DNA from: a virus
Lineage: Duplodnaviria; Heunggongvirae; Uroviricota; Caudoviricetes
IMG/VR virus record: IMGVR_UViG_2648501318_000010
Location: 1-29,133 of that record
Reading direction: 5' to 3' (one strand)
DNA: 29,133 bases
This document shows, piece after piece, positions 1 to 29,133 of the stretch. Within the stretch, counting starts at the first letter, position 1, and each line of letters begins with the position of its first letter. A program made the translations under genes and the position numbers. The notes below the pieces were generated by a model. It did not search any database, had not been told where the DNA came from, and worked only from the letters and a program-made list of their open reading frames with translations.

Positions 1-228
1 GATGCTTCAACTAACATGTTGGCTTGCGGGCGTTCATGCTCAGAAACAAGGTTGGGACAAGCACTTCCAGGCTAACACAGTCAGAAATCGAAACGTACTC
101 TCAACAGTTCGCTTAGGCATGGAAGTTTTGCGGCATTCTGGCTACACAATAACAAGGGAAGACTTACTCGTGGCTGCAACCCTACTAGCTCAAAATTTAT
201 TCACACATGGTTACGCTTTGGGGAAATT

Positions 229-1236
229 ATGAGGGGATCTCTCAGTGCAGAGCATTACTTCTCTTCTTCAGCTAGTGATGACGGGGATAAAACTTATGCT
301 CGTATGGGTTTCAAAGGTGAAACTCAGATTAATGACCAGTTAACCGGTTTTGGTCAGTGGGAGTACGAATTTAAAGGTAACCGTACTGAAACTGAAGGTT
401 CTGATAAAGACAAAACTCGTCTTGCGTTTGCAGGGCTTCGCTTTGGCGATTATGGTTCGCTCGACTATGGTCGCAACTACGGTGTAGCGTATGATGTTGG
501 CGCTTGGACTGACGTGCTGCCGGAGTTTGGTGGAGATACCTGGACTCAGACTGATGTATTTATGACCCAGCGTGCTACTGGCGTCGCGACCTATCGTAAC
601 AATGATTTCTTCGGCTTGGTTGATGGTCTGAACTTTGCTTTGCAGTATCAGGGTAAAAATGATAGTGCTGCAAAAGTGAACAACTGGAAAGGCCGCGACG
701 TAGTTGAATCTAATGGTGATGGCTTCGGTCTGTCAGCTACTTATGATTATGAAGGATTTGGCATTGGCGCAACTTATGCAAAATCTGACCGTACTGATGG
801 ACAGGTATCCTATGCTAATGCAAGCTCTCTGAATGCTTCTGGTAAAACAGCTGAAGTATGGGCTACTGGTCTGAAATATGACGCAAACAACATTTACCTG
901 GCTGCAACTTATTCTGAAACTCAGAATATGACAGTCTTCGGTGATGACTTTATCGCAAACAAAGCGAAAAACTTTGAAGCTGTTGCTCAATACCAGTTTG
1001 ATTTCGGCCTGCGTCCGTCCATCGCTTACCTGCACTCTCGCGGTGAAAATATTGGTGCGTTCGGTAACCAGGATCTAGTTGAATACATCGACGTAGGCGC
1101 GACTTATTACTTCAACAAAAATATGTCCGCTTTCGTTGACTACAAGATCAACCTGATTGATGAAAGTGAATTTACCAAAGCATCTGAGGTTGCAACCGAC
1201 AACATCGTTGCTGTTGGTATGACCTACCAATTCTAA
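229..1236 (+). CDS. Outer membrane porin of the OmpF/OmpC/PhoE family, 5'-truncated: no signal peptide and missing roughly the first 25-30 residues of the mature protein; likely a remnant or pseudogene
   Basis: Translation aligns along its length with classical 16-strand porins ([84 protein letters not shown]-terminal YQF). The ORF starts at the equivalent of the mature-protein HYF motif, so the signal peptide is absent; upstream DNA in all frames is unrelated to porin. Confidence 0.7.
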
Positions 1237-1391
1237 TTTTGGTAGGTAAGAATATGCGGGAAGGGAGTGATGTCACTGCCCGCATATAGGTGGCACCCTC
1301 ATGCCACCTTTGAAGAGGCAATAAAATTGCCTCTTCTCAATTTAACTTCATGTTATTTATTACCCTTTTATTAATTTGAAACTCTATTGTT

Positions 1392-1418
1392 GGGGCGCTT
1401 TGTTGCGCCCATTTTTTT
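1392..1418 (+). terminator. Rho-independent terminator downstream of the porin ORF
   Basis: GC stem GGGCGC..GCGCCC with a 6-nt loop followed by a run of seven T (about 1411..1418). Confidence 0.5.
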
Positions 1419-1469
1419 ACACCAATTAGGTAAAGTTATTTTTAAGTAATCGAGCAACTTTCAGCCCTC

Positions 1470-2685: not shown

Positions 2686-2932
2686 ACTCCGGCAGCTCCG
2701 CCGACTTTCGACAATGAAGTTATCGCTGGCGGCGATAGTTTTTGACTCGATTTTCATGGCGGTATATGTGCTCAATGAGACGTGGCCACTGGAACCGCTA
2801 TTGTATGCCGGGCTTCGGCTGTGCCTGACATTTTTGAGCATGGCTGCGAGATTGATGCAGCAGAAAGAAACCGCTTCAGATTGTCCACGCCGCGCGGTGC
2901 GCAAATATATGGCACGAAGGCGAAGGCGATAA
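2678..2932 (+). CDS. Small membrane protein, holin-like, overlapping the lyz stop
   Basis: ATG at 2678 overlaps the lyz stop (ATGAATAA). Two hydrophobic helices and a very basic C-terminal tail (RRAVRKYMARRRRR), a holin/antiholin-like topology. No homology recognised. Confidence 0.35.
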   Translation: MNKLRQLRRLSTMKLSLAAIVFDSIFMAVYVLNETWPLEPLLYAGLRLCLTFLSMAARLMQQKETASDCPRRAVRKYMARRRRR

Positions 2933-2945
2933 TAGTTAACGAGAA

Positions 2946-2971
2946 CCCCGGCAGCTGCCGGGGTTATTTTT
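2946..2971 (+). terminator. Rho-independent terminator after the lyz unit
   Basis: Perfect 18-bp palindrome CCCCGGCAGCTGCCGGGG followed by TTATTTTT. Confidence 0.6.
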
Positions 2972-2976
2972 GGTGG

Positions 2977-5707
<2,731 letters not shown>

Positions 5708-5773
5708 TTAATTAGAATAATTCGCATCGTGTTTGAACGGAATTTAACACTAGTCACTTGTTAAGGATTACCA

Positions 5774-8700
5774 ATGAACAAGCTATCTATGGGTGTGTTT
5801 CGCTGTTCAAGTGTCAGCGAAATATTGAAATACATTAGGGTAATAACATCTCACCGAGCGCCGATTAAATACGGCGTGGAAAAGGTGGAAGGCAAAAGCT
5901 ATGACCGACTGCGCCGGGAGGCGAATCAGAAGGCGATAGATTTGCTTAATTCGCTGGTGGACGGCGCGACACTGACAGATGAACAGCGCCAGATCCTGGC
6001 CGGGTACACTGGTGAAGGCGGCATTGGCGGGTCCGTCTCCGAATATTACACACCAAAGCCTATCGCTGAAGGTGTCTGGGAGATCATGAAGCTCTACGGC
6101 GCGGACGTAGGTAACACTCTGGAACCATCGGCGGGAACCGGCGTTTTTAATGAGACAAAACCGGTTGGTACGGTGATGACCGCGACTGAGATCAGCAGTG
6201 TTTCCGGTCGTATAAACCAGTTGTTACACCCGGAAGACAGCGTACAGATTTCCCCGTTCGAACAGCTGGCTATAAACACGCCTAACGATTCATTCGACCA
6301 TGTTGTGGGTAACGTTCCGTTCGGCGGTCGTGATAACACACGCAACATCGATAAGCCTTACGCAGAAGAAACGGACATGGGGTCTTACTTCATGCTCCGC
6401 ATGCTGGACAAGATAAAACCTGGCGGATTCATGTGTGTGATTGTGCCGCCGTCCATTGTTTCAGGTTCAAACATGAAGCGGTTACGCCTGCGCTTATCCC
6501 GTAAAGCTGAATTTCTTGGCGCTCACCGCTTGCCTACCGGTACTTTTGACGCAAACGGGACCAGTACAGTCGTTGATGTGGTGCTGATGCGCAAACATCC
6601 GGCAGAGATGGCTGAGAAAATCCCCCTGGTGGATGAAAGCACTCTCGAATCGGCAAATGTGCTTTGGCCAACGTTTATTTCTGGCAAGTGGTTTGAAAAG
6701 GACGGCCGCCGGTTTGTTCATGGCACCCAGGAAAAGGGCTTCCAGGGGCGTATTGAGGTTCGTGCCGACGGTCAGATTGATAACCAGGCTCTTAAAGCGA
6801 AGCTGATTCATCGTTTCGAAAGCCGTATCGACTGGTCTTTGCTCGATATGGCTGAACCGTCACCGACCGCAGACGTTGTTGGTGAAGGGGAAATGCGCCT
6901 GATTAATGGCGTATGGCAAAAATATGCTGGTGGTCGCTGGATTGAAGCTGATGCCGGGAAGGAACTTAAGATCGATGCTGCCAGTTATGGCGCGGATAGC
7001 TGGGAGGCTCTTCAGCGTAACCTGACTACAACAGAAGGCCGTCTCGGCATGACATTTACCCAGATGGCAAATGTCCGCGATAAGTACACCACATCAATCA
7101 GCGACGATATGGTGCAGCTGGTGGACTGGATTAACAGCCAGCCTGAAAAATACCGTGAACGCTTGTATCGCGGGGCGATGATTGGCCGGATGTTAATTGA
7201 ATATCAGGACATGAAGGCCGCCGGGCATAGTGCTGAACAAATCGAACAGCAGCGCCTTTCTCTGGTATCCCGTTTGCAGGCAGAGATTGACCGTTTTGGT
7301 AACCCCGGTCGCGGTCCGATAGCGAAATTGTCGGGGAGCGGTGCGCGCGCCTGGTTTGCTTTCCGTGGTGCGATTAAGCTGGATGGCACTATTTCTGACG
7401 AGCTGACAGGAAAGCTGGTTACGCATGATTCCAGCGCCAGTTATGACTCCACCAGCTATCAGGACACCCTGCGTTATCTCTATAGCGATCTTACCCGCGA
7501 TCCAATCCAGCTCGATGATTTCCGCTTTGCGTTTACCGGCGAACTGCCAGCCAGTGATGAAGAGTTGCTTAATTTATTGGCCAGCACCCCTGGTATTGCG
7601 GTTTCACCGTATGGCGGGATTGTTCCGTTTGCCCGCGCCACCAGCGGCGACATTAACGAGATAGTGGCTCCAAAACAGGAATTCCTTGCCACACTCCCCG
7701 ACGGTCCAGTAAAGAACAACGTCCTTAATCAGCTGGCAGCGATCGAAGAGAAGCGCATCAAGACGCCAGCAGAGAATATCCGCTTTAAGCTCAATAGCCG
7801 TTGGTTCGACCGCTCCGTCATTCTGGAGTTTTTGCAGGAAAACGGCTATCCGGATCTGCGCTATGTGCAGTCAGTGCAGCTGGAAGGCGACGAAATGGTT
7901 TCTGACACCTATCACGGTGGTGATGGTCTGTTCGTCGGGCACCGATACGGTGTCGTCCAGCGCAAGGATAAAGAAACAGGCGAGATCCGCTACGAGTGGG
8001 ACCGTAAATCAGGTGAAAACGCGACCGGGTTCCCGGCACAGCTGGAAAAGTATCTCAATGGTGCGCGTATCGGTGGCAAAGATAGCGCGACGGCGAACGG
8101 CTACCGCGAGCAGATGGCACTGCTTGAGGACCAGTTCAATAAGTGGATCAAGACGCACGATCGCTACGATGAGCTGGTTGCCAAATACAACGATGTGTTC
8201 AATAGCAATATCCCGTATGAACACTCTGGCGATCCGCTTGGGTTGAAGGGATTAAGCGGTAAGCGCCAGCCATTTGATTACCAGAATAGCGAGGTGCGCC
8301 GACTGTCCGAAGATGGGCGCGGCATCCTGGGCTTCGGCACCGGGCTGGGTAAAACCACGACCGCGCTGGCGCTTGAGGCGTTCAACTATGAGAACGGTCG
8401 CTCTACCCGTACTGCGTATGTAGTGCCTAAATCAGTGCTGGAAAATTGGTATTACGAAGCAAAAGAATTCCTGAGTGAAGAGGCATTCAGTAACTACTTG
8501 TTCGTCGGTCTTGATGTGCTGATGGATGGCGATCAGATTCGCCAGGTGCCGGTGCTCAATGAGAACGGTAAACCTGTTCTTGGTACTGATGGCACTCCAG
8601 TTATGCGCGATGCTCTTAAGCTGGCAGATGAAGCCACTATCACGGCGCGGATGAACGCGATCCCGCACTCAAACTACCGTGCAGTCGTGTTTACCAAAGA

Positions 8701-16827: not shown

Positions 16828-17496
16828 TTAAAAATAGTTTCCCTTCCCAGTTAAGATTCCGTGTGGAACGCTTTTTTCCGCAAGTCTCTGTGTGCCGCGA
16901 ATTATGTTAATCAGAGGGCTTAGTAACGATGGTTCCTGGCGTGCCTCAACTTCTCCAGCCATTGCCCTGATGTAGTCGGAGCTTGCAACGTTGTTGTATT
17001 CCGTTGCGAAGCAGCATAACAACGTCAGAACGTGCTCTGTCGTTATTTCGCTCCAGTTGATGTTGAAAAATTCATCGCCTTTTTTGTCATGTTCGGAATC
17101 GAAGATGCTTTGGTGAAGGATGTATTTGCCGGATTCCTTGCGCGGTAACTTGATCGCTTTCTGGCGTTCCAGTTCCTTGTAAATCTGCATTGCTTCAATC
17201 AGTACCGGTCTGCCGTTCATGAAGGGATCACGCAACCTTACACGCTGGCCAACTCGACCGGTAATAAAGCTGTTTTCCTCTTCCACCAGCACGATAAAAC
17301 CCTTTTCCTCTTTTTCTCGCAATTCGCGCAGCAGCTGGAGTTCCATATCGCGGCGGCGTTCAGGGTAGCTGGTCCGCTCAGCCATTATCAGCTCATTGTT
17401 GATCCATGCGGCAGTCATTGACGCCGGTTTGCCGACGCTCATCGAAACAACGCATATTTTCTTATCCATAGCGCCCCTACAAAAAAGAAAAGCCAC
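16828..17496 (-). CDS. Hypothetical protein at the position of P1 mat, downstream of ref
   Basis: ORF downstream of ref on the same strand; the likely start is the ATG at 17469 (GGGG 5-8 nt upstream). An AACAAGTGA-like late-promoter motif lies upstream. No recognisable domain; assignment by synteny only. Confidence 0.45.
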   Translation of the reverse strand: MAFLFCRGAMDKKICVVSMSVGKPASMTAAWINNELIMAERTSYPERRRDMELQLLRELREKEEKGFIVLVEEENSFITGRVGQRVRLRDPFMNGRPVLIEAMQIYKELERQKAIKLPRKESGKYILHQSIFDSEHDKKGDEFFNINWSEITTEHVLTLLCCFATEYNNVASSDYIRAMAGEVEARQEPSLLSPLINIIRGTQRLAEKSVPHGILTGKGNYF

Positions 17497-17664: not shown

Positions 17665-18225
17665 TTAGTGCATGATGTTTGCCATCTCATAGGCGTCAGC
17701 CAGTAACTCCATCTCTGACTTGTTCAGCAGGGTGAATTCTTTCTTGCCTCCAACCACACCATCGGCATGAACAGGGACCAGCCAGGGGTATTTTGCTCTT
17801 ACTTCAGCCGGTGCTGCATGCTGGTGGTGCCATCTACAAAGTGGCAATTGCTTTTTATGACAACCCGGCGCGGTACGACCGGAGATATGGTGCAGAGACA
17901 CCTCTTCAGATATTACTCCATGCATGTAGCAGGCAATGCAGGGGAGAGTGCCAAGAGCATTGGCGATGGTCCGTTCCTCCGCCGTCGGTGTTCGCCCCTT
18001 CAAGCCACGAGATTTTATTTTTACCGCACTTTTCCGCGTTTTGCTGGCTGGTGGGCGCTCTTTCTGTTTAGCGATACGGCGGTCGATAGAATCCCGCATT
18101 TTCTGATATTGCGATTCTCGCCAGGCGGGGTCAGCCAACTTTTCCCGTTGCCGAGCGATCGCTCGTTCTCTGGCTGCCTTCTGCCACTCGCGGCGCTGTT
18201 CAAGTTTTTGTTCGATTGTTTTCAT
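17665..18225 (-). CDS. ref: Ref recombination-enhancement function (RecA-dependent HNH-type nuclease)
   Basis: 186 aa from the ATG at 18225 (MKTIEQKLEQRREWQ...); basic disordered N-terminus and HNH-like core (CIACYMHG...HHISGR...CRWHHQ), as I recall for P1 Ref. The ORF track extends 26 codons further upstream. Confidence 0.85.
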   Translation of the reverse strand: MKTIEQKLEQRREWQKAARERAIARQREKLADPAWRESQYQKMRDSIDRRIAKQKERPPASKTRKSAVKIKSRGLKGRTPTAEERTIANALGTLPCIACYMHGVISEEVSLHHISGRTAPGCHKKQLPLCRWHHQHAAPAEVRAKYPWLVPVHADGVVGGKKEFTLLNKSEMELLADAYEMANIMH

Positions 18226-18230
18226 ATGGC

Positions 18231-18256
18231 AAAAAAAAGGCGGCCTAATGGCCGCC
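18231..18256 (-). terminator. Hairpin plus U-run on the minus strand between cra and ref
   Basis: Minus strand reads GGCGGCC-ATTA-GGCCGCC followed by eight T, ending 5 nt before the ref ATG. Confidence 0.45.
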
Positions 18257-18323
18257 AATGATGTCAAGGAGTGAAGTAATGGCAACGTCTTCGTAGTTGA
18301 CAAAAACTGCGGCTAAATTATAG

Positions 18324-18340
18324 CAATCAATTAGAGCAAT
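18324..18340 (-). promoter_or_regulatory. C1 operator-like site upstream of ref
   Basis: Minus strand ATTGCTCTAATTGATTG (11-nt core match), about 100 nt upstream of the ref ATG; ref is known to be C1-controlled in P1. Confidence 0.5.
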
Positions 18341-18446
18341 GGTAGATATTTTGTTTCTCGCGAATCACATTTTTTCACTTCAGTACCTGTGTGCTATACT
18401 CCTTCTTGATTGATTGGATGCGGAATACAAACCCGCTCTTTTGTGC

Positions 18447-18474
18447 AGCCTGGCTCCTTGCCAGGCTTTTTTTT
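18447..18474 (+). terminator. Plus-strand rho-independent terminator overlapping the cra 3' end
   Basis: Stem AGCCTGGC/GCCAGGCT with a short loop followed by a run of about eight T. Confidence 0.4.
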
Positions 18475-18784
18475 ATTTCATCATGGAAGCTGTTAACGCT
18501 TTGGACCTTGCTGAACTGATTGAGAGGGCTTTGTCAACGTGCCCCAAAAATTCGCCAAACTCAGACATCACTTTAGCAAAACCGCGCCGTGCTTCTTCCT
18601 CGGTGGCATTCATCACGAAATGTTCAGCACCACGCATACTTTTGACAGGGAACGCAACGGATATTGAATCAATATCAGGCATTCTATCGCTCAGCTTTAC
18701 AGTGACAATGACGGCTGGCGACTGAATATTAGTGCTTACAGACAGCACTACATATTTTCCGTCGATTTTGAAATCCTTTCTCAT
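18473..18784 (-). CDS. cra: Cre-associated small protein (P1 cra position)
   Basis: 103-aa ORF immediately downstream of cre on the same strand, with a C1 operator-like site between them; assignment by synteny only. Confidence 0.5.
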   Translation of the reverse strand: MRKDFKIDGKYVVLSVSTNIQSPAVIVTVKLSDRMPDIDSISVAFPVKSMRGAEHFVMNATEEEARRGFAKVMSEFGEFLGHVDKALSISSARSKALTASMMK

Positions 18785-20284: not shown

Positions 20285-20318
20285 ATAACTTCGTATAATG
20301 TATGCTATACGAAGTTAT
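20285..20318. other. loxP recombination site
   Basis: Exact 34-bp site: ATAACTTCGTATA (13-bp arm), ATGTATGC (8-bp spacer), TATACGAAGTTAT (inverted arm). Confidence 0.97.
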
Positions 20319-28891: not shown

Positions 28892-29133
28892 CGATAGGAA
28901 TTTAAATCCCCAAAAGACTAAAAAAGCACCACAAAACGGATATTTCTTCAACACCCCTTGTGCACCATATGAGCGGAAACGACTATTAAACAGGATGACA
29001 CTGATTGATACAGGGTATGAATGGCGGTTTTTTGCTCCGTTTCCGGTAAAATGGACGCAACTTCCCCTCTGCGGCTCTCAGCCGCACACCTGCTGTCGTG
29101 CCAGTCGCTCATGCATCAGGACCAGCTCTGCCA

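Follow-up and report, generated by a model that had tools for sequence, protein, structure and literature searches.

In phage P7 (AF503408), an uninterrupted porin gene, nmpC, is located between odaA and ssb. Phage P1 has the same variable slot beside ssb (RD-2 of Venturini et al.), which also holds an insertion sequence, but there the cargo is isaA-IS1-isaB and not a porin, and the element is IS1, not IS10. A disrupted form of the porin gene has been described for the plasmid pSvP1: Venturini et al. (2019, Sci Rep 9:18861; PMC6906374) reported an IS10 with a 9-bp direct repeat and an interrupted nmpC, listed the region as "P7 nmpC interrupted by IS10 and P7 odaA", and gave the repeat as TGCTCTGCA, which is the reverse complement of the sequence TGCAGAGCA considered below. 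The target consensus of IS10, 5'-NGCTNAGCN-3', and the accompanying 9-bp duplication are documented in the literature. A survey of 77 P1-like phage-plasmids (PMC9603915) makes no mention of a porin, nmpC or IS10.

Here we consider a 29,133-bp stretch of DNA (the window), and mainly its beginning. The genes ssb, lyz, pro, prt, darB, cre, c1, pacAB, and phd/doc are highly similar to those of P1/P7 and syntenic with them, which places the window on the backbone of P1-like phage-plasmids (Punavirus); the ssb–lyz region is 98–99% identical to the P1/P7 phages, positions 4200–29133 match P1-like plasmids at 97–100%, and the pSvP1 annotations are consistent with this assignment. P1 records match the window only from position 1470 on, where the ssb stop codon begins, and P7-type records over the whole length. 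The neighbors of the slot are also as in P7, with odaA upstream and ssb/lyz downstream, and the same arrangement is observed in the plasmids p204A1-114K and pSvP1_F and in NZ_CP075059.1. An earlier reading of the window from its letters (the sequence-only reading) placed isaA-IS1-isaB at this position in P1, which is confirmed, the slot of P1 being located between ssb and hxr. It also suspected disrupted phage cargo next to ssb, and this cargo has turned out to be a P7-type nmpC split by IS10.

The entire window is 99.997% identical to pSvP1_F (MN510446); the match descends in the record from position 20302, crosses the origin and finishes at 130236. The sole difference is observed at window positions ~17474–17478, where five C correspond to six C in the record, shortly before the start annotated for a hypothetical gene (record positions 2834–3475); this is probably a homopolymer sequencing difference. 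The end of the window (28955–29133) is inside an IS91-family element, ISEc84 according to PMC6906374, with the last ~55 bases in the transposase gene. Both window edges fall in multicopy insertion sequences, IS10 and ISEc84, as would be expected if a short-read assembly had broken at repeats. Upstream of the window, close to nmpC::IS10, a TnpB-family (IS609-like) element is found between ddrA-like and ddrB-like genes (5468–6676 of the retrieved pSvP1 locus), and has already been noted in PMC6906374. The second plasmid, p204A1-114K (CP100027.1), has at 17882–18685 of the retrieved locus an insertion between the head-processing and portal genes, which contains the lincosamide resistance gene lnu(G) along with genes for a permease and an HTH protein; it corresponds to the pro/prt boundary, at ~3989–4026 of the window, and is absent from the latter.

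The list of open reading frames begins with a 76-codon ORF (2..232, plus strand), open at the window edge, and a 335-codon ORF (229..1236, plus strand), the TGA of the former (230–232) overlapping the ATG of the latter (229–231). The longer ORF ends with ...VGMTYQF; the C-terminal aromatic residue, here the terminal Phe of YQF, is a barrel-assembly signal. It encodes an enterobacterial general porin, matching Pfam Porin_1 (E=5e-142, profile positions 11–337 of 337) and the NCBIfam porin OmpC subfamily (E=1e-143, the match beginning at profile position 36). With 478.6 bits, it is just below the cut-off of the latter model (484) because the N-terminus is absent. The ATGA overlap, the 76-codon ORF running to the window edge, and the YQF end, all described in the sequence-only reading, are indeed present, and its assignment of the product to the OmpC/OmpF/PhoE/NmpC porins agrees with both profile matches.

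According to frame analysis, the first six residues of the 335-codon ORF (MRGSLS) are encoded by the end of IS10 and one base of the target, so that this chimeric ORF, whose ATG and first five codons are contributed by the IS10 end, has no signal peptide. Native porin codons restart at position 247, with Ala42 of the 370-aa precursor, leaving the window porin without its signal peptide (23 aa) and another 18 residues at the mature N-terminus. A signal peptide of 23 aa is annotated in P7 NmpC, and solved mature porins align from residue 24. The sequence-only reading was right about the missing signal peptide and overestimated the loss from the mature part, which it put at 25–30 residues. The signal peptide, missing from the window ORF, is encoded by the intact allele and, on the far side of IS10, by the 5' fragment (MKKITVALSAVAASVLMAMSAQA).

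Positions 246..1236 (plus strand) are the 3' portion of a P7-type nmpC gene, from the Ala42 codon to that of Phe370 and the stop, with 100% nucleotide identity to the uninterrupted "porin OmpC" genes found on many P1-like plasmids. This segment is a pseudogene fragment formed through insertion, and the locus is a disrupted, presumably non-functional member of the porin family; the ATGA overlap and the chimeric ORF are an accident of the IS end, neither an engineered nor a selected fusion. The gene is followed by the 3' untranslated tail of the porin cassette (1237..1469, plus strand), a part of the P7-type cassette that P1 lacks. This 233-bp convergent gap between the porin and ssb stops contains several short GC-rich hairpins, one of which, at 1393–1410, precedes a T-run and is terminator-like in the terminator scan.

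Bases 1..245 (plus strand) constitute the last 245 bp of a 1329-bp IS10, identical to the final 245 bp of the element in p204A1-114K and pSvP1_F, both of which annotate it as "IS4-like element ISVsa5 family transposase". Comparison of bases 1–250 with IS and phage sequences, proposed in the sequence-only reading, also leads to IS10, as bases 1–235 match at 99.6% a phage record annotated "IS10 transposase". The 76-codon ORF is the exact C-terminus of the 402-aa transposase of p204A1-114K and matches the NCBIfam IS4 family transposase at positions 272–337 of 340; the full protein scores 404 bits with NCBIfam transpos_IS4_2 (cut-off 152) and 87 bits with Pfam DDE_Tnp_1 (cut-off 23). This ORF had been considered, correctly, unrelated to the porin, but had been left without a name; IS1, as in P1, or any other IS as its origin is ruled out by its identity with the IS10/ISVsa5 transposase C-terminus.

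Downstream of the transposase gene, the element ends with the terminal inverted repeat GGGGATCTCTCAG (233..245, plus strand), the reverse complement of CTGAGAGATCCCC, with GATC at 236–239. The left IS end being outside the window, the length of the element and the pairing of its ends were read from p204A1-114K and pSvP1_F. In both complete plasmids the 1329-bp element begins with CTGATGAATCCCC and finishes with GGGGATCTCTCAG, and the inverted repeats are imperfect, CTGAGAGATCCCC pairing with CTGATGAATCCCC of the other end. The end at 233..245 we take to be the "inside end" of the Tn10 nomenclature. Near-identity to the IS10R of Tn10 was gauged indirectly, through the annotation of the phage record and through the copy in nmpC of E. 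coli BM28 (a Tn10-derived IS10R, as reported by its authors), from which the copy studied here differs by 0–1 nt.

The junction between IS10 and the porin gene is base-exact at 245/246, inside the interval of about 229–250 given by the sequence-only reading, and is followed by TGCAGAGCA (246..254, plus strand), the right-hand copy of a 9-bp target-site duplication, which matches five of the six specified positions of the IS10 consensus. As the left IS end and the 5' porin fragment lie outside the window, the locus is read as an insertion on the basis of its near-identity to complete records. The E. coli plasmids p204A1-114K and pSvP1_F (NZ_MN510446.1), both of them complete, match positions 1–1460 of the window at 100%. 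In both of them TGCAGAGCA directly flanks the two IS ends, and an AT-rich promoter region and the first 132 nt (44 codons) of the gene are found directly upstream of IS10. The intact allele (NZ_CP075059.1) contains a single copy and reads ...GTTAA TGCAGAGCA TTACTTC..., to be compared with ...GTTAA TGCAGAGCA [IS10] TGCAGAGCA TTACTTC... in the disrupted plasmids. The 5' fragment now encodes a 44-aa peptide, its TGA being supplied by the IS terminus. In silico removal of IS10 and one repeat regenerates, residue for residue, the 370-aa product of the intact allele (WP_000724561.1). This allele is carried by many P1-like plasmids, with a P7 counterpart, so the search for an intact copy suggested by the sequence-only reading was successful; extension upstream, via the complete plasmids, places the 5' porin fragment beyond IS10.

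The intact allele differs from P7 nmpC in length (370 vs. 371 aa), the nucleotide and protein identities being 97.9% and 98.1%, respectively, and is a variant common on E. coli P1-like plasmids. The reconstructed protein matches Porin_1 with E=2e-148, and its residues 24–370 align end to end with the mature Omp36, OmpC, OmpK36/37, and PhoE structures, which are 16-stranded trimeric porins (E~1e-135). Of the NCBIfam models, the intact allele fails both equivalogs, PhoE (494.8, cut-off 599) and OmpF (451.1, cut-off 583), and exceeds only the cut-off of the broader "porin OmpC" subfamily (531.7, cut-off 484); therefore the name "ompC" in the records is a subfamily label and does not imply orthology.

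These comparisons leave little doubt that a single IS10 (ISVsa5) transposed into codon 44 of a P7-type nmpC, in the ssb-odaA slot of the P1-like phage-plasmid pSvP1 or an essentially identical element. Integration duplicated the 9-bp target TGCAGAGCA, at a site probably picked for its resemblance to the IS10 consensus, and split the gene in two: the 5' part retains the promoter and the signal peptide, plus 21 further codons, and the 3' part comprises codons 42–370. Given its start within IS10, the window displays only the last 245 bp of the element and the 3' part, and the ATG at 229, which lies in the IS end and overlaps the transposase stop, opens the porin frame by accident. In the complete records the "missing" 5' end of the porin is displaced 1.3 kb upstream, not lost; the gene looks 5'-truncated because the window begins inside IS10. 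More generally, a gene can look truncated or fused when the edge of a window or contig falls within an IS.

We further observe that the same site is used repeatedly. A 261-bp probe across the junction and a second probe for the opposite orientation were compared with 5,426 complete E. coli genomes. The junction probe identified seven chromosomes with IS10 abutting a porin paralogue (85–87% identical) at the same position, and the opposite-orientation probe, seven more, as well as one P1-like plasmid, pEC21Z048-103K. In all, IS10 occupies the codon-44 site in 14 chromosomes out of 5,426 genomes, seven in each orientation, and in three P1-like plasmids, two forward and one reverse. The exact window junction, at 99% identity or above, was not found in the RefSeq set of complete E. 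coli genomes and was found in the plasmid collection only. All nine loci inspected have the 132-nt 5' fragment, the 1329-bp element, and a flanking 9-bp repeat. In the chromosomal nmpC-type genes this repeat is TGCTAAGCA, which matches NGCTNAGCN at all six specified positions, compared with five in the P1-type TGCAGAGCA. Up to 16 nt separate one IS copy from another, and the porin alleles and genomic contexts also differ. Both orientations, these differences in IS copies, alleles and contexts, and the documented event in E. coli BM28, where IS10 hopped from a Tn10 resident in that laboratory lineage (entry "nmpC ... I 44/346"; PMC10044804), show that the insertions are independent. The K-12 DLP12 nmpC of BM28 contains two insertions, IS10 at codon 44 and the classical IS5 close to the 3' end, each disrupting the gene (4613–5593 of the retrieved locus).

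Target preference explains the recurrence at the perfect-consensus chromosomal site. It may be insufficient by itself for two hits at the P1-type site: sites with five matching positions number four in the gene and 133 in the whole window, this one included. These two hits could result from flanking-context effects or from selection. Selection is the alternative that survives best, although we still consider it unlikely; it keeps the insertion structure described above and adds a functional claim, against neutral decay: disruption of nmpC would be favored because of lower antibiotic permeability or loss of a phage or colicin receptor, and would be reversible, precise excision re-activating the gene. 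It would agree with the P1-type site having been hit once in each orientation, with disruption of the homologous chromosomal site in at least 14 complete genomes, and with re-activation of an IS-silenced nmpC by IS excision under cefotaxime in a published evolution experiment. On the other side, IS10 is present at this site in only three of ~111 porin-bearing plasmid records, and the chromosomal recurrence is already accounted for by the target sequence.

A stronger version, which we regard as very improbable, treats codon 44 of nmpC-family porin genes, whether of prophages or of phage-plasmids, as a conserved IS10 landing site acting as a population-level on/off switch for an accessory porin. 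The insertion would silence the gene, precise excision between the 9-bp repeats would restore it, and antibiotics or porin-dependent phages would select the state; the evidence, however, needs no explanation beyond target-sequence preference. Leaving the switch aside, the many independent insertions at these 9 bp, chromosomal and on phage-plasmids and in either orientation, make the site a natural IS10 hot spot; the on/off state of the gene bears on outer-membrane permeability and thereby on antibiotic and phage susceptibility. The repeated use of the 9-bp site is a modest extra finding.

Even less probable is a true 5' deletion or recombination remnant, formed by an IS10-mediated adjacent deletion or by recombination between two IS10 copies. 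The sequence-only reading offered a recombination remnant as one of two possibilities and spoke of a deletion endpoint; the junction is instead where a simply inserted IS10 ends, next to its 9-bp duplication. The window does stop inside IS10, its left side not being directly visible, and several IS-mediated rearrangements have been described elsewhere in pSvP1-type elements (PMC6906374). Still, pSvP1_F, practically the same molecule over 29 kb, contains both the 5' fragment and the corresponding copy of the 9-bp repeat, p204A1-114K has the same structure, and a matching target duplication on both sides is characteristic of simple insertion without a later deletion.

Simple insertion in turn raises the question of what remains of the gene product, and nmpC::IS10 is best read as a null allele. 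There is only a slight chance that the chimeric ORF (229..1236) is expressed as a functional, N-terminally remodelled porin or as a cytoplasmic protein with a new role. The ATGA overlap is preceded by purine-rich GGGGAAATT, and translational coupling is conceivable, but the product has neither a signal peptide nor the 18 N-terminal residues of the mature protein, and RefSeq describes the equivalent fragment as "porin; incomplete; missing N-terminus", with equivalents annotated as pseudogenes. Without the signal peptide and the first beta-strand region, such a product would be unable to reach the outer membrane or fold in it. A crude consensus scan of positions 1–245 yielded no sigma-70-like promoter on the plus strand, the overall counts not exceeding those in shuffled sequences. 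The strong outward promoter of IS10, pOUT, faces the other (outside) end, and expression of the IS10 transposase is extremely low; weak outward promoters, pIII and OUTIIp, have also been reported in IS10. Transcription into the 3' part would then need read-through of the very weakly expressed transposase gene. Because of the missing signal peptide, the lack of a promoter-like site, the direction of pOUT and the low transposase expression, any product of the chimeric ORF would be scarce, cytoplasmic, and non-functional.

Finally, an assembly or sequencing artefact, either a chimeric IS10-porin join or a frameshift masking an in-frame N-terminus (the case that the sequence-only reading had named against itself), can be practically dismissed: short-read assemblies do break in multicopy elements such as the IS10 and ISEc84 at the window edges, but the junction coincides to the base with the IS10 terminus and is accompanied by the correct duplication of 9 bp, the same junction is present in two independently sequenced complete plasmids, one of them from PacBio reads, and no frame of 1–245, which is pure IS10, contains signal-peptide coding sequence.

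The simple insertion of IS10 has a direct precedent in pSvP1_F, where the element, its 9-bp repeat, and the gene that it interrupts are all the same, the window being a 29-kb slice that starts inside the IS. The nmpC::IS10 allele is an ordinary event already published for pSvP1, and taken alone matters little, as a textbook case of an IS knocking out an accessory gene. Some chromosomal nmpC genes of lambdoid prophages (DLP12 type), e.g., in E. coli BM28, have IS10 at the homologous 9 bp after 132 nt, also with a 9-bp duplication and with inactivation of the porin, but these prophage-borne NmpC proteins are only ~82% identical to the porin considered here, their target is TGCTAAGCA and not TGCAGAGCA, and the insertions are chromosomal, independent events, some of them in the opposite orientation. 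The classical nmpC::IS5 of K-12 is likewise a prophage-borne NmpC porin gene silenced by an IS and can be re-activated by its excision; there, however, IS5 is located near the 3' end of the gene, whereas here IS10 is at codon 44.
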